A stretch of DNA of 32,000 bases, taken from assembly GCA_963718915.1 (NCBI GenBank), contig CAVRAI010000003.1, positions 450,001 through 482,000 on the forward strand, written 5' to 3'. Below the pieces are notes generated by a model that saw only the letters and a program-made list of their open reading frames with translations, ran no database searches and was not told the origin of the DNA. This document shows, piece by piece, positions 9,509 through 31,950 of this stretch. The stretch comes from an uncultured Chloroflexia bacterium (GTDB lineage Bacteria > Chloroflexota > Ktedonobacteria > Ktedonobacterales > JADMIN01). The translations under genes were made by a program, and so were the position numbers. Every line of letters starts with the position of its first letter. Positions within the stretch are counted from its first letter, which is position 1.

Positions 9509-10213
9509 TCAGTGCGCCAGCAGATACTGCACGTCGTTGGTGATCTGGTGCGGGTCGATTCCTGGCCCGGCGTCGAGAACAACGCGCTCGCGTCCCTGCT
9601 GGTCGATGATGTAGATGTAGGTCGAGTGATCAATCACTCCCGGAAGCTGTGGGTCTGGCACCGAGACGATATGGTAAGCCTTCCAGAGTGGCGAAAGCTG
9701 GTCCTCTGTGCCGAGCAGGTAATGGATATCGAAGGTCACGCCATTGTGGCTCAGGAATGTGGCGACCGACGCGGGCGTATCGGCGGTGTTGACACTCAGC
9801 GCGACCCATGTCGCCTGGCTGGCCTGCTTCCCCAGGGCTTTATAGGCTTGTTCCAGTCCAACCGCCGTCAGCGGACACTCCTCATGCGGGCAGTGTGAGT
9901 CGAAGAACGTCAGCACAACTGGTTTGCCCTGGAGCTTCGAGAGTTGCACCATCTGGCCATTCTGGTCTTTGAGCGTCATATCAGTGGCAGGGATGGCGCC
10001 CAGATCAACGCCGAGCATCCCCGACGGCCCTGACGCAGTCTGTGTCGCCCGATTCGCCAGCCCGTTGAAGATGAAGATACTGGCGACGACGACGACGACC
10101 AGCGCGCCAGTGATGACCCATGACGTCGTCCGCCGGGAGATGGTTGGTCTGGGTTGCTGGGGAGGATCCGCATCTGGCCGAGTCTCTATCACCGATGGTG
10201 GCTGTTGCGACAT
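9509..10213 (-). CDS. SCO1/SenC family copper chaperone / thioredoxin-fold protein
   Basis: N-terminal TM anchor. ..GKPVVLTFFDSHCPHEECPLT.. and the downstream ..IDHSTYIYIIDQQG.. match the Sco layout. The ATG at 10213 is preceded by GGAGG with a 7-nt spacer. Confidence 0.8.
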   Translation of the reverse strand: MSQQPPSVIETRPDADPPQQPRPTISRRTTSWVITGALVVVVVASIFIFNGLANRATQTASGPSGMLGVDLGAIPATDMTLKDQNGQMVQLSKLQGKPVVLTFFDSHCPHEECPLTAVGLEQAYKALGKQASQATWVALSVNTADTPASVATFLSHNGVTFDIHYLLGTEDQLSPLWKAYHIVSVPDPQLPGVIDHSTYIYIIDQQGRERVVLDAGPGIDPHQITNDVQYLLAH

Positions 10214-23097: not shown

Positions 23098-23847
23098 TTA
23101 CGGCTGGCTGCTCGCAGTGGGCGCGGCGCAGTATGCCTCGGTCAGCGTCTCGCAGCGCTGATTGAGCCACGTCATCAGCGGCTCCAGCGCGGCCAACGCA
23201 CTCGCCAGCGCGTTCACCTCAGGCATACGGAGGCCCTGCGTCTGAATCGGACCCAGAATCTCCCGCGTGGCCTGCTCCGTCTCGCGGAATGCCCGCTGCA
23301 GATCGCGCGCCATCCGCTTGAATCCGCCACGGCCCAGATCGCGCACGACCGGCGCGGCAAGCGGGCCGCTGGGATTGCCATTCAGCAAGAGCGGGCGCGA
23401 GGGAGACGCGGGCGCCGCCAGCATTGACGTCCCGTTTACCCCGTTTGCCCCTGCCACCGACGCCACCGGCACGGCGGGCAGTTGTGGCTGTGTCGCCTCC
23501 ACGAGGTAGGCGCAGACGGCGCGGGTCGTGTCGAGCTGGTGTACGATGCCGGTCAGGCGTCCGAGCGCCATGCTCAACCGCACCTGCGTGCGCATGCTGC
23601 GCTGGCCCAGCGCCCTATCCTGCTCGGCGCACGTCGCCAGAATCCCCGCGAGATCCTGGTTGAGCCGGGTCGCCAGCGCGCGTGTCCGATTCGCGTTGTC
23701 CCGGCGCTCTTGAAGGGCGCGAACCCATCCCGACATAGCCTGCGAGAACTTGCCACTGTTTCCCGCCTGTGGCGATGTGGGGGTTGATGCGGTCGCGCGC
23801 CCCTTGCGCCGGAACCAGCCACCGCGCTGCGTCTTCTGAGTTGTCAT
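23098..23847 (-). CDS. Hypothetical protein (Ala/Arg-rich, predicted helical or coiled regions)
   Basis: The ATG at 23847 (MTTQKTQRGGWFRRKG..) is preceded by GGGAGG with a 9-nt spacer. No family recognised. The ORF-track start at 23928 is probably an extension. Confidence 0.55.
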   Translation of the reverse strand: MTTQKTQRGGWFRRKGRATASTPTSPQAGNSGKFSQAMSGWVRALQERRDNANRTRALATRLNQDLAGILATCAEQDRALGQRSMRTQVRLSMALGRLTGIVHQLDTTRAVCAYLVEATQPQLPAVPVASVAGANGVNGTSMLAAPASPSRPLLLNGNPSGPLAAPVVRDLGRGGFKRMARDLQRAFRETEQATREILGPIQTQGLRMPEVNALASALAALEPLMTWLNQRCETLTEAYCAAPTASSQP

Positions 23848-25295: not shown

Positions 25296-26864
25296 ATGCC
25301 CGGCCCCCTCGACGATCTGGAAACGCGGCTCTGGGATGCCGCCGACACTATGCGCGCCAACTCTGGCCTGCGCTCGTCCGAATATTCCACACCTGTCCTC
25401 GGCCTGATCTTCCTCCGTTTCGCCGACGTCAAGTTTGGCCACGCTGACCAGCAGCTACGCGCTGAGCTCCCCGCCAACAGCCGCCGCACCATCGGCCCCG
25501 CTGATTACCAGGCGCGCGGTGTGATGTATCTGCCCGATGCCGCCCGCTACTCCCGGCTGATGCGGCTTCCCGAAGGCGCCGACATCGGCACGGCGCTCAA
25601 CGAGGCGATGCGCGCTATCGAGGCGGAGAACCCCGACCTGCGCGACACGCTGCCCAAAACCTATAACCAGCCCGGCCTGACACGCGATGTCCTCTGGTCG
25701 CTCCTGGGCACGTTCGCCAACATCCCGCTCGACATCGAGGGCGATATCTTCGGCAAGATTTACGAATACTTCCTGGGCGAGTTCGCCAAAAACGAAGGCT
25801 CCAAGGGCGGCGAGTTCTTTACCCCCACCGCTCTCGTCAAGCTGATCGTCGCGATTCTGCAGCCGTTCCACGGACGCATCCTCGACCCTGCCTGTGGCTC
25901 CGGCGGCATGTTCGTTCAGAGCGCGCGTTTCGTCCAGAACCACCGCCACGACCCCAACGCCGAAATCTCGCTCTATGGCCAGGAGAAGACGCGCGAGACG
26001 GTCCGCCTCTGCAAGATGAATCTGGCGGTCCACGGTCTCTCCGGCGATATCCGCGAGGCCAATACCTACTACGAGCAGGTTGCCGATGGGAATGGCGTCG
26101 GCCACTTCGACTTCGTGATGGCGAATCCGCCGTTCAATGTGGATGGCGTGGATAAATCGCGGCTGGCTGGCGATCCGCGCTACGCCTTCGGCCTGCCTCG
26201 GGTGGACAACGCGAACTATCTCTGGATTCAGGAGTTCTATAGCTCGCTCAACGACCAGGGCCGCGCCGGTTTCGTGATGGCGAACTCCGCCAGCGACGCC
26301 CGCAACTCTGAGCAGGACATCCGCCGCCAGTTGATCCAGTCCCACGCCGTGGATGTGATGGTCTCTGTTGGCCCCAACTTCTTCTACACCGTCACGCTGC
26401 CTTGCACGCTCTGGTTCTTCGACAAGGGCAAGCGCGAGACGCCCCGCGCCGAGACCGTCCTCTTCCTCGACGCCCGCCACATCTTCACGCAGGTTGACCG
26501 CGCCCATCGCGAGTTCACGTCCCAGCAGATCGAATATCTCGCCAACATTGTCCGGCTCTATCGCGCCGAGCCAACGGAGAACGCGCACGAGAGCGCCGCG
26601 CTATTGGCCGAGCACTTCGCCGATGGCGTCTATCGCGATGTGGCGGGACTCTGCAAGGTGGCGACGATCACTGAGATCGAGGCGCAGGGCTGGAGCCTGA
26701 ACCCTGGCCGCTATGTTGGCGTGGCCGAGCGCGCCGATGACGACGGCGATTTCCGCGAACGGCTGGAGCTGCTGTATGAAGAATACGAGACGCTGACCAA
26801 CGCGGCGCACGAGCTGGAAGACCGCATCAGCGCGAATGTCACTGCCCTGCTGGAGGCGGAGTGA
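25296..26864 (+). CDS. hsdM: Type I restriction-modification system DNA methyltransferase subunit M (N6-adenine)
   Basis: N-terminal HsdM domain (..[33 protein letters not shown]..), AdoMet motif ..[12 protein letters not shown].., and catalytic motif ..FVMANPPFN... AGGAG SD. G+C is similar to the core genome. Confidence 0.95.
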
Positions 26865-26872: not shown

Positions 26873-26962
26873 TTATCCACAGAATCGTTGACTAATTGTG
26901 GATAAAATCGTACAATGTCAACGTTGACACGAGGGGAGAGAAATATAGATCTGTCAACGTTA
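26873..26962 (+). promoter_or_regulatory. Cassette promoter (TTGACT-17 nt-TACAAT) with palindromic operators
   Basis: -35 TTGACT at 26888-26893, a 17-nt spacer, and -10 TACAAT at 26911-26916. A perfect 14-bp palindrome, TGTCAACGTTGACA, lies at 26916-26929 and overlaps the -10/+1 region. A half-site, TGTCAACGTTA, lies at 26952-26962 next to the SD. A 9-bp inverted repeat, TTATCCACA (26873-26881) / TGTGGATAA (26897-26905), brackets the -35. Confidence 0.65.
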
Positions 26963-26973
26963 GGAGACACACC

Positions 26974-28218
26974 ATGATCGGCAGCCAGCTACGACAAGCC
27001 AGACTCGCAGCGGGATTGACACAAGATGAGGTCGTCGAACGCCTCGCCCAGATTGGCTGTGTCATCACCAAGCAGGGGTTGTCGAAATACGAGCTTGGCA
27101 AGAGCATCCCGAAAGCGGCCTTTGTGCTCAAGGCGGCGCAGGCGCTAGGGGTGAAGTCGTCATACCTCCTACATGAGCCTACCATCGAAATTGAGTGGCT
27201 CGCATTCCGTAAGCAGGTGACTCTCACAGAGCGGCGGCAAGATCAGATCAAGGTACAGGTACAGTCCATCGCCGAAGCCCATGTCGAACTGAGGCGGATG
27301 CTGACTCCCAGCGAGCAAATTTTCTTCCCCACGCGGCGTGTAGTCACGTCTCCAGAAGATGCTGAGGTCGCTGCTGATGAACTGCGCCGTCTATGGGGGC
27401 TAGGAAATGACCCCATCGAAAGTGTTGTGCAAGTTGCCGAGGATCGCGGAGCCATCGTCGTGGAGCAAGCAGAACCCGGCGTGACGTTCGACGGCCTTTC
27501 TGGCTACGCCACAGGATTCATACCCATTGCGGTCATCAACAGTACGGTTCCTCGCGACAGGAAGCGCTTTGACCTGGCCCATGAGCTTGGCCATCTTGTC
27601 ATGGATACTGACGGGTTGCCAGATGCTGAGGCCGAGCGGCGGGCGCATCGGTTCGCGGGAGCCTTCCTCGTCCCGGCTGAAACGGCGCGTCGCGAGCTAG
27701 GCGTAAGGCGACACGAGCTGGGCCTCGATGAGTTGAGCCTGCTGAAATTGAAGCATGGGCTCAGCATGCAGGCGTGGATTTACCGCGCCTTTGACCTCGA
27801 CATCATCACCAAAGCGCTCTGCTCGCGTCTGTTCGCCAAACTCAACGCGATGGGGGCGCGTAAGCAAGAGCCTGTGCAGTTCGATGGAACCGAGGAACCA
27901 GTACGTCTGAAACAGATGACGCTACGTGCCCTGAGCGAGCGGCTCATCACTGAGGACAAAGCGCTCGAACTTTGCCCTGGCTGCGTCACACCCACGCCGC
28001 CGACGCCCGCACTGGCGGGGCGCATGACCGCACGTGAGCTCATGAAGCTGCCACTTGAGGAGCGCAACCGCATCCTGGCCCAGTCGGCAGCGCTCGCAAG
28101 GGACGTCTACGCCACCAATAAGGACTTGACGGACTTTGAGGCGTTTGGGGATGGTGATCTGTTTGACGAGTACCCGGAGGATGAGCATGTCCGCAGTCGT
28201 AGACCCCGCGCGCGGTGA
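26974..28218 (+). CDS. XRE-family HTH fused to an ImmA/IrrE (COG2856) zinc metallopeptidase, with an acidic antitoxin-like C-terminal tail
   Basis: N-terminus MIGSQLRQARLAAGLTQDEVVERL..QGLSKYELGK is an XRE HTH. HEXXH motif ..FDLAHELGHLVMD.. followed by ..RRAHRFAGAFLVP... C-terminus ..MTARELMKLPLEERNRILAQSAALARDVYATNKDLTDFEAFGDGDLFDEYPEDE. GGAGA SD before the ATG at 26974. Confidence 0.9.
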   Translation: MIGSQLRQARLAAGLTQDEVVERLAQIGCVITKQGLSKYELGKSIPKAAFVLKAAQALGVKSSYLLHEPTIEIEWLAFRKQVTLTERRQDQIKVQVQSIAEAHVELRRMLTPSEQIFFPTRRVVTSPEDAEVAADELRRLWGLGNDPIESVVQVAEDRGAIVVEQAEPGVTFDGLSGYATGFIPIAVINSTVPRDRKRFDLAHELGHLVMDTDGLPDAEAERRAHRFAGAFLVPAETARRELGVRRHELGLDELSLLKLKHGLSMQAWIYRAFDLDIITKALCSRLFAKLNAMGARKQEPVQFDGTEEPVRLKQMTLRALSERLITEDKALELCPGCVTPTPPTPALAGRMTARELMKLPLEERNRILAQSAALARDVYATNKDLTDFEAFGDGDLFDEYPEDEHVRSRRPRAR

Positions 28219-28543
28219 GGTTTGGCGGGTGGAGTTCGACCCCACTGTGGGGCAGGAAATGTTTAAAACCCGTCCCGCAGTGGTGGTGAACGTGGCTGAC
28301 GTGGGCATATACGACTTGTGCATCGTTGTTCCACTGACTGAATGGGATCCACGCTACGAAGACATGATTTGGATGACGCCCATTCCGTCCAACACAGCGA
28401 ATGGATTGAGCAAAGACTCTGGCGCGGATGCGTTTCAGGTGAAGTCGGTTTCGCATCTGCGGTTTCGCGCTAAGCTCGGCGTGCTGACTGACGAGCAAGT
28501 AGAGAACATTGCCGCCGCAATTGCGCTATGCGTCGGCTATTAG
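28187..28543 (+). CDS. mazF: PemK/MazF family type II toxin (mRNA interferase)
   Basis: MSAVVDPARGEVWRVEFDPTVGQEMFKTRPAVVVN..CIVVPLTEW..SGADAFQVKSVSHLRF.. is the canonical MazF/PemK pattern. GGAGG SD with a 6-nt spacer. Overlaps the upstream gene by 32 nt. Confidence 0.9.
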   Translation: MSAVVDPARGEVWRVEFDPTVGQEMFKTRPAVVVNVADVGIYDLCIVVPLTEWDPRYEDMIWMTPIPSNTANGLSKDSGADAFQVKSVSHLRFRAKLGVLTDEQVENIAAAIALCVGY

Positions 28544-28568: not shown

Positions 28569-29816
28569 GCAATGGTATCAACGCAAGTAGCGTGGCGATC
28601 TTGTTCTCTTGGCGAACGTGATAATGCTGCATCATCGAGGGATATCCGATCTTCCACGCAAAATGGGCGTGAACGCTCGCTCAGGACGGCGTGAACCCAT
28701 TATCTCCGGTCGTCTAGGCGTAACTGGACGCCGACGATATTACCCACCGTAAAAGGAGACATGGTGCTCGTCACTGAAGCCGCTATGGCACCTTGGAGTG
28801 AAGTGTCTTACATTGAAGAGGATTACTGGCCGCTCAACACAACGCTATTCGTCGAGTGAATTCAAGGGCATTGATCCGCGCTACTATCATGCTATTTTCT
28901 GCGCACGCTTAACTTTGGAAATGCAGAATGCGAGCTGGCGCTCGTTCCGGTGCTACTGTGACACAGCAAACCATCTACACCTGCTACCAGCTGCCATACT
29001 TCCGCCGCTGCCCATCCAGCGCAAGATCGCCGCCATCCTCTCCGCCTACGACGACCTGATCGAGAACAACACCCGCCGCATCGCCCTCCTCGAAGCCATG
29101 GCCCAGGCGCTCTACCGCGAGTGGTTCGTCCGCTTCCGCTTCCCCGGCCACCAGTCCGTGCCAATGGTAGACTCGCCGCTCGGGCCGATCCCGCAGGGCT
29201 GGCAGGTGGTGAAGCTGGGCAGCCTAGTGGAGACTCAATATGGGTATACCGAGTCGGCAACTACCAACGACATAGGGCCGAAATTCCTTCGGGGAATGGA
29301 CATCAATAAGTCCTCCTATATCCAATGGGATACAGTGCCATACTGCTCCATACCCGATTATTTGGTTGGCCGTTACCGCCTCTCTATAGGTGATGTTGTG
29401 GTGATTCGCATGGCCGATCCTGGAAAAGTTGGGATCTGTAGCGAAAGACGTTAATGCCAATTTTTGCGTCCTATCTTATTCGCCTTCATATCACATCGTC
29501 CCGCATTTCACCTTATTACCTGTTCTACTTTCTCCTCTCAGATCGCTATCAAAGCTATGTCACGGGCGCCAGCACAGGAACCACGCGCAAGAGCGCGAGC
29601 GCAGGAGTCATCACCGACATCGAAACAGCCGTCCCACCAGCAGATATTCTTGCTCAGTTTGAAGAGCAAATCGCGGCCCTTCGAGCAACACTTAGCAATC
29701 TACTCGAACAAAACGCCAACCTCCGCCGCACGCGCGATCTGCTGCTGCCGAAGCTCGTGTCGGGCGCGGTCGATGTGGCCGGGATGGAGATAGCGGCAGG
29801 GGAGGATAACAATTGA
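28566..29816 (+). pseudogene. hsdS: Type I R-M specificity subunit S, multiply frameshifted
   Basis: HsdS-like pieces are spread over all three frames: MAMVSTQVAWRSCSLGE.. (frame a); ..EPIISGRLGVTG.. (a+1); ..[11 protein letters not shown] (a); ..[77 protein letters not shown] (a+1); VAKDVNANF (a+2); ASYLIRLHI..PPADILAQFEEQIAALRATL..RRTRDLLLPKLVSG..* (frame a again). Stops at 28692, 28750, 28856 and 29452 interrupt them. Confidence 0.8.
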
Positions 29817-30673
29817 TGGACCCAATAAGTGACATCATCATTGCCGCTGCTGTGGGTGCAGTAACTACTCAGACAGTAGGCGGGATCGCGGCATTGGTGA
29901 AGAGCATTGTACCTGGACTCTGGGAGCATCTAAGCCCCAAAGGCAAAAAACAGTTAGAGACAAACCTTACCAACTTCATGAACCACTTTAAGTCCGAAGT
30001 TCAACATCGCACTGAGGCAGGGCAACTTTCTGAGGAGCAGATTCATGCATTGGAAGACGACCCTGCTGTTATCGACCTGCTCCTACGAACTCTTGAACAA
30101 GCAGCCTTGACGAGCGATGCAGACAAACAGACACTGCTCGCTAAGCTTTTGGCAGAGAGACTTGGCACTGATACAGACTCTGAGCTTGCTCTCGTAAGTC
30201 GTATGGCATGCAATACCATCCCTAACCTAAGTGGCCAGCAGCTCAAGATCATAGCGGTGCGCTATATCCTATTCTTTCAGCGATACAACGAGACCATCGA
30301 GAGTCAGAGTGACGATGTTTCCACACGTCGCCTACGTGAAGTTGAGTGGCTCATCAGCATGTTCGAGCCATACCAGGATATAATAGCAAGCACACACGAT
30401 GCCGAGCATCTTGCAGGTGTTGGATGTTTCTTTGGGAAACAAGGATTTCTTGCGTACGAACTCAAGTCTACCCTAACACAGATGGTATCCCCTGATCTCG
30501 ATCTAGATATGGTAATGAAAACGGCAACCTGGCAGCATCTTGAAACAGTATGGAACAACGCCAGACTGGCAGGTTTCGATCTTACGTCGGTGGGCTCGAT
30601 GCTAGGAATGTACACATCCGATATCTTGGCAAATCGCCCGAACGATGTAGACAAATGGTTGAACCGTAGCTAA
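29816..30673 (+). CDS. Uncharacterised protein, LPO_1073/Vpar_1526-like (Abi-alpha/DUF4393-related?), first gene of the embedded cassette
   Basis: 285 aa. The ATG overlaps the hsdS stop (TGATG), with GGAGGA 9 nt upstream. Hydrophobic N-terminus (IIIAAAVGAVTTQTVGGIAALV). ..DDPAVIDLLLRTLEQAALTSDADKQTLLAKLLAERL..LSGQQLKIIAVRYILFF..HLAGVGCFFGKQG..FDLTSVGSMLG... Family assignment is from memory and unverified. G+C is visibly lower, at 42-57% in spot counts. Confidence 0.7.
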   Translation: MDPISDIIIAAAVGAVTTQTVGGIAALVKSIVPGLWEHLSPKGKKQLETNLTNFMNHFKSEVQHRTEAGQLSEEQIHALEDDPAVIDLLLRTLEQAALTSDADKQTLLAKLLAERLGTDTDSELALVSRMACNTIPNLSGQQLKIIAVRYILFFQRYNETIESQSDDVSTRRLREVEWLISMFEPYQDIIASTHDAEHLAGVGCFFGKQGFLAYELKSTLTQMVSPDLDLDMVMKTATWQHLETVWNNARLAGFDLTSVGSMLGMYTSDILANRPNDVDKWLNRS

Positions 30674-30690
30674 GCGTTAAGGAGCAACTA

Positions 30691-31524
30691 ATGCAACCAG
30701 GATGGGATATAACGTCTGAATGGCTGGAATGTCCGGTGTGTCATCACATCATTCTTCGTTCACAGGAACTCAGCAAAACAAGTACTCCATGCCCTGAATG
30801 CGGGAAACCTGGCACCAGGAGTCTATATCCCGACTCGCCCGAAGCCGACTTCATCCACATGGCCGCGTACTTCTTTGGGCAAGGAGAGAAACGCAGAATC
30901 GCGAATCAGGCTGAGCGGCTAGAGGAGGCGCTCCTTGAAATTGGGAAGCAGTACGACCCTGAGTACCTCGAAGAGCTCGCAACAGAGTTGGCCCAAAGAT
31001 TTAACGGCTCAGCGGACCCAGTAATTGACGCACAAATGCTTCAATGTTCGCTCGATTACCTCATGAGTATCCTCGATATTTCGATGGATCAAGCGATACG
31101 CGTGTGGCATCCACTGATGGGTTCCACAAAGGGCACTTTTGAGGAGCACAAAGCCACTGTCCTCATGGCATGCAGCGCATTTGAGAGCATGTTTCTCAGC
31201 CTGCTAATACATGTAGGTATCTGGCGTGGTGGTCTGGAACCCCAAAAGGCGAAACGCATAGTTGAGCAGTTAGGAGTACCAGGGCGGACTTATAGCCAGT
31301 TTGAAAAGTGGGCTAATTGCTCCATTGATGATAAGGCAGAACAGATTGGATACTCAGCTTTCTGGGAGAATTGGCGCAAGATTAGGGCCGTTCGTAACAA
31401 ATTCATGCACGGGAAAGATGATCCAATCAAAAGGAGTACCGCCATTGATGCTTTTAAGTTACTACCGCAACTCGTCGCATTCTTTGTAACTCTAAACAAC
31501 CACTTTGCCCCAAAGGCACCCTAA
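30691..31524 (+). CDS. Zinc-ribbon protein with a C-terminal HEPN-like (R-x4-H) domain, predicted RNase effector; second gene of the cassette
   Basis: 277 aa. AAGGAG SD with a 7-nt spacer. N-terminal CPVC-x16-CPEC. Helical C-terminal region ending ..FWENWRKIRAVRNKFMHGKDDPIKRSTAIDAFKLLPQLVAFF.., where RNKFMH matches the HEPN Rx4-6H signature. Low G+C. Confidence 0.7.
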   Translation: MQPGWDITSEWLECPVCHHIILRSQELSKTSTPCPECGKPGTRSLYPDSPEADFIHMAAYFFGQGEKRRIANQAERLEEALLEIGKQYDPEYLEELATELAQRFNGSADPVIDAQMLQCSLDYLMSILDISMDQAIRVWHPLMGSTKGTFEEHKATVLMACSAFESMFLSLLIHVGIWRGGLEPQKAKRIVEQLGVPGRTYSQFEKWANCSIDDKAEQIGYSAFWENWRKIRAVRNKFMHGKDDPIKRSTAIDAFKLLPQLVAFFVTLNNHFAPKAP

Positions 31525-31544: not shown

Positions 31545-31631
31545 ATGCATAACTACACCGAAGGCGCCCTCGTCGAGCAGCCCGCCATCGCCCTGCTCAA
31601 ACAACTCGGCTGGCAGCATCTCAACTGCTGA
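31545..31631 (+). pseudogene. hsdR: Type I R-M restriction subunit R, N-terminal 28-codon remnant
   Basis: MHNYTEGALVEQPAIALLKQLGWQHLNC* matches the typical HsdR N-terminus (..E..lvEqPai.lL..LGW..). GGAGA SD is retained. The reading frame ends where the sequence switches to an hsdS 3' end. Confidence 0.6.
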
Positions 31632-31699
31632 CGAAGCTCGTATCGGGCGAGGCCGATGTCGCGGCGCTGGAGATAGCGGAGCGGGAAGATGCGATATGA
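31625..31699 (+). pseudogene. hsdS: Second hsdS 3'-terminal fragment (25 codons) fused to the hsdR stub
   Basis: LLTKLVSGEADVAALEIAEREDAI* compared with the hsdS end LLPKLVSGAVDVAGMEIAAGEDNN* (29742-29816). The nucleotide alignment is colinear over about 75 nt, with roughly four-fifths of positions identical by eye. Confidence 0.6.
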
Positions 31700-31713
31700 T
31701 GAGGAGAACAACC

Positions 31714-31950
31714 ATGCGTGATACCCAGCCCCCCATCACCGACGACGAAGAATATCATGGCTATCAGCGAGCACGGGATAAAATGACCCTGCTCGTTGAA
31801 CAACGTGAAGCACGGCTGATTGATGCGCTGGCGCGTGGGAATGGAGAAGAGATTGAGGATCGGCGCTTTGATCTGCTCGATGCCTTACGCAAGCGCCAGG
31901 GCATCCTTGATGCGCTCAGCGTGTATGAACACCGCCAGCAGAGCGCCTAG
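31714..31950 (+). CDS. Hypothetical small acidic/helical protein (78 aa)
   Basis: The ATG at 31714 is preceded by GAGGAG with a 7-nt spacer. In-frame ATGs at 31696 and 31699 overlap the hsdS-fragment stop. MRDTQPPITDDEEYHGYQRARDKMTLLVEQREARLIDAL... No family recognised. Confidence 0.45.
   Translation: MRDTQPPITDDEEYHGYQRARDKMTLLVEQREARLIDALARGNGEEIEDRRFDLLDALRKRQGILDALSVYEHRQQSA

Follow-up and report, generated by a model that had tools for sequence, protein, structure and literature searches.

This study concerns two adjacent open reading frames (ORFs), ORF-A and ORF-B, which together occupy positions 29816-31524 between hsdS and the 5' end of hsdR in a type I restriction-modification (R-M) locus of an uncultured Chloroflexia bacterium. 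The sequence analyzed is a 32,000-nt stretch of contig CAVRAI010000003.1 (positions 450,001 to 482,000, forward strand), hereafter called the window; coordinates are counted from its first letter, and loci holding homologues of either gene are designated by L numbers. An earlier note, made from the sequence alone, had interpreted the pair as a two-component abortive-infection module built around an RNase. The two genes and the motifs of ORF-B are:

29816-30673, plus strand: ORF-A, 285 amino acids (aa), a predicted all-alpha protein of the LPO_1073/Vpar_1526 family
30691-31524, plus strand: ORF-B, 277 aa, with a zinc ribbon, a helical linker and a HEPN-like C-terminal domain
30730-30801, plus strand: Cys4 zinc ribbon of ORF-B (C14-P-V-C17, x16, C34-P-E-C37), with all four Cys invariant in a 62-sequence alignment and weak matches to Zn_ribbon_8/FmdB
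31393-31410, plus strand: R-x4-H motif of ORF-B (R235-N-K-F-M-H240), of the HEPN type, with R and H invariant and N nearly so

Both ORFs are intact and lie in tandem on the same strand, separated by 17 nt and each with its own Shine-Dalgarno sequence. The ATG of ORF-A overlaps the TGA of hsdS as TGATG and has GGAGG about 10 nt 5' of it, while a Shine-Dalgarno-like AAGGAG lies 7 nt upstream of the ORF-B start. These features, like the motifs quoted earlier for ORF-A and for ORF-B (CPVC-x16-CPEC and R-x4-H), are all present as described. The low G+C content reported for the segment is also real (0.490, with 0.53 at third codon positions [GC3], compared with 0.635 over positions 1-25295; GC3 in hsdM is 0.83), but the figure of 65-75% given for core genes was somewhat high, as most 500-nt windows on the upstream side of the island have values of 0.59-0.70. 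Because both proteins have full-length homologues at 53-81% identity, and because pairwise dN/dS is 0.12-0.25 for both (with dS near saturation), ORF-A and ORF-B are real genes and not chance ORFs. The two intact genes are under purifying selection.

ORF-B, which carries WRKIRAVRNKFMHG with R235-x4-H240, has no significant match among Pfam, NCBIfam, PADLOC v2.0.0 or PHROG models, and its matches to zinc-ribbon models and to HEPN_RiboL-PSP are weak. A word-indexed search of 5.8 billion proteins returned only seven relatives, and an exhaustive profile search of 1.84 billion representatives returned 218 clusters at E ≤ 1e-3, of which 79 were at E ≤ 1e-10. No relative was found in two scans of GTDB genome contigs. 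Judged by these comparisons, ORF-B founds a rare family that has no model in Pfam, NCBIfam or PADLOC v2.0.0. Family members are mostly 270-300 aa in length, with a subset of 190-230 aa that does not have the central helical insert, and two members are fusions. One fusion (P0020, 729 aa) has an N-terminal extension of about 460 aa in which an H...HD-like motif was seen by eye; an HD domain was considered for this extension and rejected, being unsupported by a search of PDB sequences. The other (P0161, 586 aa) has the ribbon-HEPN unit at its N-terminus, followed by a long C-terminal extension.

The zinc ribbon and the R-x4-H motif, both pointed out in the earlier note, proved to be invariant across a divergent family, and the motif fits the R-x4-6-H signature of the HEPN superfamily. 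In the 62-sequence alignment, where average identity to ORF-B is only about 20-25%, the invariant residues are C14, C17, C34, C37, R235, H240 and N270, and P47, E165, N236 (at least 90%) and F265 are nearly invariant. In a separate alignment of 26 short forms, C14, C36, R146 and H151 are invariant, and C11 and E76 are nearly so. Five of the 62 relatives match the Pfam model HEPN_RiboL-PSP (best E 3.2e-6), short relatives match CARF-HEPN, Csm6/Csx1 and RT-HEPN models (best E 3.4e-5), and weak PDB sequence matches at the ORF-B motif are to HepS and Csm6. The AlphaFold2 model of ORF-B (pLDDT 81.8) has a small beta ribbon (strands 11-13 and 20-22) followed by ten helices, and places the R-x4-H motif at the end of helix 222-239, just before the last helix. 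When the model was compared with the PDB by Foldseek, the matches of highest probability were HEPN toxins, namely HepT 6m6w/6m6u (TM score 0.46, root-mean-square deviation 5.1 over about 120 columns), 1wty and 5yep. Because the R and H are conserved, relatives match HEPN profiles, PDB sequences match at the motif, the model puts the motif at a helix end before the last helix, and HEPN toxins head the structural matches, the C-terminal domain of ORF-B is likely to belong to the HEPN superfamily.

The lineage of this domain appears to differ from the DUF4145 type mentioned at first. Neither ORF-B (E ≤ 1) nor its 62 relatives (E ≤ 0.01) gave a match to DUF4145, and it was concluded from the profile matches that the domain is apparently closest to RiboL-PSP/CARF-type lineages rather than to DUF4145. 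Alignment by hhalign of the ORF-B family to a RiboL-PSP-like protein, to DUF3644 and to a PDC-M14A-like protein covered only the R...H motif or the ribbon, with low probability.

The closest parallel in architecture is RAZR/PD-T7-4 (ring-activated zinc-finger RNase), a single zinc-ribbon and HEPN abortive-infection RNase. Its N-terminal Cys4 ribbon makes it specific for phages and promotes its assembly on ring proteins of the phage (portal, recombinase), which leads to nonspecific RNA cleavage and abortive infection (Nature 2026, PMC13017515). ORF-B likewise combines in one polypeptide a Cys4 ribbon at the N-terminus, a linker and, at the C-terminus, a HEPN-like domain with R and H. RAZR/PD-T7-4 is also a defense-island gene, and its variable N-terminal region is the likely determinant of specificity. 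However, the RAZR HEPN domain is of the DUF4145 type, with R146...H154, for which the ORF-B family has no match, and ORF-B differs in its strict R-N-x3-H spacing and in that a helical insert of some 100 residues separates its ribbon from the HEPN domain. The R and H of RAZR are essential. Neither ORF-B nor its relatives match any model in PADLOC v2.0.0, which we assume to hold one for PD-T7-4, and no RAZR chain was found in PDB profile searches at E ≤ 10. By sequence, ORF-B appears to fall outside the RAZR family despite the parallel architecture. With one architecture carried by two HEPN lineages, the ribbon-plus-HEPN design may have originated or diversified repeatedly. The concept is less novel than the earlier note assumed, since RAZR/PD-T7-4 has been published; the fusion of zinc ribbons to HEPN domains and the presence of HEPN genes in R-M operons are in the literature as well (Anantharaman 2013).

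The type I R-M setting recognized from the window sequence was confirmed by the locus itself and by the contexts of homologues. In all five close-clade loci whose downstream sequence is visible (the window, L001, L003, L004 and L006), the start of hsdR follows the stop of the ORF-B gene, at a distance of 15-23 nt in the window, L001, L003 and L006 and of about 22 nt in L004, where the contig ends nine codons into the hsdR ORF and the fragment was not scored by tblastn. The hsdR start in this position has the pattern M-[HKY]-[NDE]-Y-[ST]-E-[DG]-[AT]-L-[VI]-E-Q-P-A-I. ORF-B in the close clade is probably co-transcribed with hsdR. In the wider family (L011-L018), no hsdR, hsdM or hsdS was found nearby, and several of these loci carry DNA methylases, a RAMA protein, SIR2, HNH or a second RiboL-PSP HEPN protein. 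Because of these contexts, the type I R-M link is best regarded as a property of this clade and not of the ORF-B family. One small island in L015 (1735-3887) holds an ORF-B relative beside a SIR2_2 protein and a second HEPN_RiboL-PSP protein (1.5e-5). Flanking sequences in L011-L014 raised the idea of an integron attC site downstream of the ORF-B-like genes; this was rejected, as the flanks reflect synteny of close relatives plus one hairpin-containing indel. Within the indel (L011 1095-1150 and its equivalent in L013) lies a perfect inverted repeat of 11 bp (CCAGATTGGCG ... CGCCAATCTGG). L012 and L014, although otherwise syntenic, lack the indel sequence, which could represent a small hairpin element.

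HEPN proteins inside type I R-M operons have a precedent in the anticodon nucleases PrrC and RloC (Anantharaman 2013), which are proposed to act as a second line of defense; PrrC is embedded almost exclusively in type I R-M loci. ORF-B in the close clade could resemble them as a guard, with or without ORF-A, that is kept latent by, or monitors, the HsdR/HsdM/HsdS complex and is set free once this complex has been disabled by an anti-restriction protein of a phage. The position directly upstream of hsdR in five of five loci, with gaps of about 15-23 nt, would fit such a role. PrrC and RloC, however, are proteins of about 400-800 aa defined by an ABC-ATPase domain, and ORF-B is about 277 aa with a zinc ribbon; scans with Pfam, NCBIfam and PADLOC models showed no ATPase domain in it. 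The wider family lies beside type II- or type III-like methylases, SIR2 or HNH, or where there are no R-M genes, and ORF-B is intact in the window even though hsdR and hsdS there are defective and the locus has no HsdR. On these three grounds, dependence of a PrrC-like kind is disfavored: a guard function is rather unlikely for ORF-B itself, and the wider family is unlikely to depend on an R-M complex.

ORF-A, in contrast to ORF-B, belongs to a family that already has models. It matches NCBIfam NF045477 (LPO_1073/Vpar_1526) at 103.4 bits against a cut-off of 45, with residues 38-282 aligned to profile positions 21-257 of 257; Pfam PF28206 "Vpar_1526" is precomputed for ORF-A and all its homologues; and phrog_19542, to which no function is assigned, is matched at 5.3e-15. 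The suggested resemblance of ORF-A to LPO_1073/Vpar_1526-type proteins was therefore correct, and by these profiles ORF-A counts as a true member of a known but uncharacterized family, with no difference from it found. The proposed relationship to Abi-alpha was not detected, as Abi_alpha was absent at E ≤ 1 in the Pfam scan and the PADLOC scan was empty at E ≤ 1. As had been supposed, neither protein matches a named defense system in PADLOC v2.0.0. The AlphaFold2 model of ORF-A (pLDDT 80.7) is all-alpha with 16 helices and a glycine-rich N-terminus of low confidence. Foldseek comparison of this model with the PDB returned designed helical proteins only, and a profile search of PDB sequences returned nothing. 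Across 13 sequences with identities as low as 25%, the conserved residues include K104-x2-LL, D195/H198/C204 and LTSVG256-260; this conservation justifies no catalytic inference. A literature search found no paper on LPO_1073/Vpar_1526 function. The sole paper found to mention Vpar_1526 is an outer-membrane proteome study of Veillonella parvula, which lists it as an uncharacterized protein in a table of the subcellular-fractionation section, and the supplements of Payne et al. do not mention LPO_1073, Vpar_1526 or RiboL-PSP. Scans of viral contigs gave no match to ORF-A or ORF-B, and tblastn against plasmid and phage collections gave none to either protein or to the distant ORF-A relative P0166.

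Whether the two genes belong together was addressed through the neighborhoods of their homologues, with the presence of each gene scored by dedicated HMM searches of all loci. ORF-A and ORF-B occur together only in the window, L010 (identical to the window), L002 (a close relative in an assembly with many frameshifts) and L004, amounting to three lineages. ORF-B occurs without ORF-A in six loci (L001, L003, L012, L015, L017 and L018), and ORF-A without ORF-B in five lineages (L007/L008, L009, L019, L020 and L022). Gene order in L001 is hsdM, hsdS, ORF-B, hsdR and an AIPR/AbiU-like gene. In L003, ORF-B and hsdR are preceded first by the gene for a Zn-ribbon protein resembling PDC-M14A and then by that for a 385-aa protein containing a hydrophobic stretch. 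In L007/L008, ORF-A is followed by KwaA and KwaB (Kiwa); in L009 and L022 it is followed by a DUF3644/PDC-S19 HEPN protein; in L019 it is near a DUF5615 gene; and in L020 a distant relative follows a radical-SAM gene amid biosynthetic genes. The evidence from these neighborhoods says that ORF-A and ORF-B are not a co-conserved two-component system and are better described as separate cargo genes. ORF-A is probably a defense-island gene in its own right that travels with the hsdS 3' tail.

The two proteins upstream of the ORF-B homologue in L003 are encoded at 113-2210. The first, of 316 aa with multiple CxxC motifs, matches PDC-M14A (1e-16) and has an R-N-L-L-A-H motif of its own, so that this slot may hold another HEPN-like cargo; in the 385-aa protein that follows it, for which no family match was found, the hydrophobic stretch was read by eye as putatively membrane-spanning.

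The earlier proposal of one abortive-infection system, in which ORF-A would act as sensor, regulator or antitoxin and ORF-B as the HEPN RNase effector, has to be weighed against these contexts. The two genes are adjacent on one strand with a 17-nt gap and separate Shine-Dalgarno sequences, and the pair is found again in L002 and, at identities of 59% and 53%, in L004, which has diverged. In five of the seven lineages with known context, moreover, ORF-A is followed by a Zn-binding HEPN protein, either ORF-B or DUF3644. However, ORF-B is found without ORF-A in six loci that include L001 and L003 of the close clade, ORF-A also adjoins Kiwa or non-HEPN genes, and the 75-nt gap between the two genes in L004 shows that translational coupling is not conserved. 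The DUF3644 protein HEC-08 (HEPN plus Zn fingers), for its part, defends alone (Payne et al. 2024 preprint). A two-component system is thus judged unlikely. A regulatory partnership is kept alive, as an unlikely reading, by the recurrence of a HEPN protein after ORF-A in five of seven lineages.

The most informative locus is L022 (3988-5087), which has DUF3644 (PDC-S19/HEC-08-like HEPN) in exactly the position of ORF-B between ORF-A and the hsdR start. Nucleotide identity between L022 and the window is 94% in the hsdS core, 78% in the hsdS tail plus ORF-A and 94% at the hsdR start. Because DUF3644 takes the place of ORF-B on this shared backbone, the slot before hsdR appears to be exchangeable. 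The hsdR frame of L022 diverges after about 18 codons, and hsdR may be a stub there too. HEC-08/PDC-S19 is like ORF-B in combining HEPN and zinc binding in one gene and in being embedded in other defense operons, and it follows ORF-A in L009 as well; its domain order is reversed, with HEPN N-terminal and Zn fingers C-terminal, and its HEPN family differs from that of ORF-B, with no similarity by hhalign.

The slot and its recombination history are best seen from the features that surround the two genes in the window:

25296-26864, plus strand: hsdM, intact type I R-M methyltransferase subunit of 522 aa (Pfam N6_Mtase 1.2e-84, HsdM_N 2.1e-18)
26896-28218, plus strand: RmrA-like helix-turn-helix (HTH) and ImmA/IrrE (M78) protease gene (PADLOC RmrA 1.1e-47; Pfam Peptidase_M78, HTH_3)
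28136-28543, plus strand: MazF/PemK-like toxin gene (Pfam PemK_toxin 3.1e-20), the likely toxin partner of the RmrA-like gene
28798-29454 and 29454-29816, plus strand: hsdS pseudogene split between two frames, its first target-recognition domain being short; Pfam Methylase_S matches the first fragment
29742-29818, plus strand: hsdS 3' tail, copy 1, ending in the TGATG that holds the ORF-A start
31545-31631, plus strand: hsdR stub, 28 codons of conserved HsdR N-terminus followed by TGA
31625-31701, plus strand: hsdS 3' tail, copy 2, 78% identical to copy 1 and ending in the TGATG that holds the orf84 start
31696-31950, plus strand: orf84, a small conserved ORF after the second hsdS tail

A repeat search showed that ORF-A, ORF-B and the hsdR stub are flanked by a 77-nt direct repeat (78% identity), which is the hsdS 3' tail. 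The hsdR stub covers residues 1-28 of 1058 at 57% identity by tblastn and aligns with the hsdR starts of L001, L003 and L006; its frame (...AAC TGC T) runs into the second tail (CTG CTG ACG...) through five shared nucleotides, a CTGCT microhomology (31625-31630). The description of the flanking genes as decayed holds for hsdS, which aligns in one frame only over residues 153-277 of the 373-aa L001 HsdS (tblastn) and has a frameshift at about 29454. It does not hold for hsdR, as the stub is a recombination junction with the second hsdS tail and not a product of decay in place.

Similar remnants occur elsewhere. In L002, an hsdS-tail remnant and the two genes have a homologue of orf84 (92% nucleotide identity over 9696-9949) on their upstream side, and a short hsdS-tail remnant also precedes ORF-A in L009. 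The L002 homologue of orf84 (9707-9943) follows a DUF6932 gene, in an order relative to ORF-A and ORF-B that is opposite to that in the window. ORF-A is itself a mosaic with respect to L002 (10001-10855), having 77% identity overall with the last 115 or so residues identical and the N-terminal part diverged, which suggests recombination within the gene. Taken together, the hsdS-tail repeat, the CTGCT junction, the remnants in L002 and L009, the mosaicism of ORF-A and the low G+C content indicate that a block consisting of hsdS tail, ORF-A, ORF-B and the hsdR 5' end was brought into a resident hsdM-RosmerTA-hsdS-orf84 locus through recombination at the hsdS tail, which is conserved. The suggestion that the two genes were maintained on their own while their neighbors decayed was an over-reading, as the low G+C content and the hsdS-tail repeat fit a segment that recombined in recently; the intactness of ORF-A and ORF-B may simply reflect recent arrival.

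The hsdS-hsdR interval has been described as a hotspot for embedded genes (PMC12255303), and "guilt by embedding" in type I R-M loci has been published (bioRxiv 10.1101/2024.01.29.577857), which also makes the idea less new than it had seemed. Known embedded cargo includes the rlo genes of Campylobacter jejuni, TgvAB of Vibrio cholerae VPI-2 and DarTG2 of the enteropathogenic Escherichia coli (EPEC) RRDM island. These share with the window the presence of foreign defense genes between hsdS and hsdR or between hsdM and hsdS, at a site that acts as a recombination hotspot. The window differs in its cargo genes and in that the host R-M system is itself inactivated, with hsdS frameshifted and hsdR reduced to a stub.

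The explanation favored here, with somewhat better than even confidence, is that 29816-31524 consists of two cargo modules, each a single gene independent of the other, stacked between hsdS and hsdR; ORF-B would be the functional core and a latent RNase. HEPN RNases form composite active sites by dimerization. ORF-B would be a self-contained sensor-effector in which a helical linker joins the Cys4 ribbon to the HEPN domain. If it works like RAZR/PD-T7-4 and other defense proteins with HEPN domains, its variable N-terminal ribbon and linker would respond to a phage cue or promote oligomerization. Pairing of the HEPN domains would create the composite R...H active site, and cleavage of RNA would then shut down translation and make the infection abortive. 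Autonomous action is likely because the wider family lives outside type I R-M loci. The sequences show directly that both genes are intact, which families they belong to, that the motifs are conserved, that the two genes are separable, that ORF-B adjoins hsdR and that recombination has left scars; the HEPN fold, the RNase activity, the anti-phage role and the mode of activation are inferred.

Several points weigh against this explanation. ORF-B itself matches HEPN_RiboL-PSP only at E 0.14, below the cut-off, and no Foldseek match for it is significant. The literature holds no experiment showing RNase or anti-phage activity for any member of the ORF-B family. The contexts come from a sample of about 20 loci, many on short contigs; within it, the succession of ORF-A by a Zn-binding HEPN protein in five of seven lineages could reflect a functional partnership rather than hotspot stacking, and the adjacency of the two genes is kept in L004 at 53-59% identity. 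Finally, the wider ORF-B relative in L012 and the distant ORF-A relative in L020 lie amid housekeeping genes.

These last contexts also bear on a reading in which neither gene serves in defense. Both would be passengers of the recombined fragment, with ORF-B a housekeeping or regulatory protein that binds or processes RNA, or else a selfish addiction element. The literature has no experimental data for either family, and ORF-A has no recognizable catalytic fold. However, the families are rare, patchy and mosaic, their repeated neighbors are R-M, Kiwa, RosmerTA, AbiU/AIPR, PDC-S19, PDC-M14A and SIR2 genes, and the absence of both from the GTDB representative genomes scanned fits accessory defense cargo, so that the passenger reading is highly improbable. 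At the other extreme, the ORF-B family could be a new class of phage-sensing HEPN RNases wired to type I enzymes, co-transcribed with hsdR and released on attack of the restriction complex as a Zn-ribbon analogue of PrrC, with LPO_1073/Vpar_1526 proteins of the ORF-A type as exchangeable upstream regulators or sensors for ORF-B or DUF3644 effectors; this combination is very doubtful.

Current views of defense islands are not overturned conceptually. New here are a rare family of Zn-ribbon-HEPN proteins that lacks annotation, the strictness with which this clade places it before hsdR, and a clear example of cargo swapping, documented at nucleotide resolution by the hsdS-tail repeats, the hsdR 5' stub and the replacement of ORF-B by DUF3644. 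Because no model captures the family, because the residues of metal-binding and catalytic type are sharply conserved, and because its place upstream of hsdR is specific, ORF-B is a cheap and well-defined candidate for a new single-gene anti-phage RNase. The uncharacterized LPO_1073/Vpar_1526 family, in turn, gains a concrete defense-island context.

HsdM of the window has 70% identity to that of L001. RosmerTA systems pair a protease-type antitoxin (HTH plus ImmA/M78, RmrA) with variable toxins (PMC10440598), and window positions 26896-28543, between hsdM and hsdS, fit this pattern, having a putative RmrA-type antitoxin gene adjoining a toxin gene. The same RmrA-PemK pair is carried by L022, and L002 has an HTH-domain gene at the matching position after hsdM. 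Profile scans with Pfam and PHROG gave no family match for orf84. An intact hsdR was sought upstream within the window and none was found, the genes there being housekeeping genes (PPDK, PLP decarboxylase, CopCD). About 2 kb 5' of hsdM, ARAGORN predicts an unusually long tRNA-Pro (TGG) of 101 nt at 23134-23234 on the minus strand; it overlaps a listed ORF and could be an island boundary or a false call.

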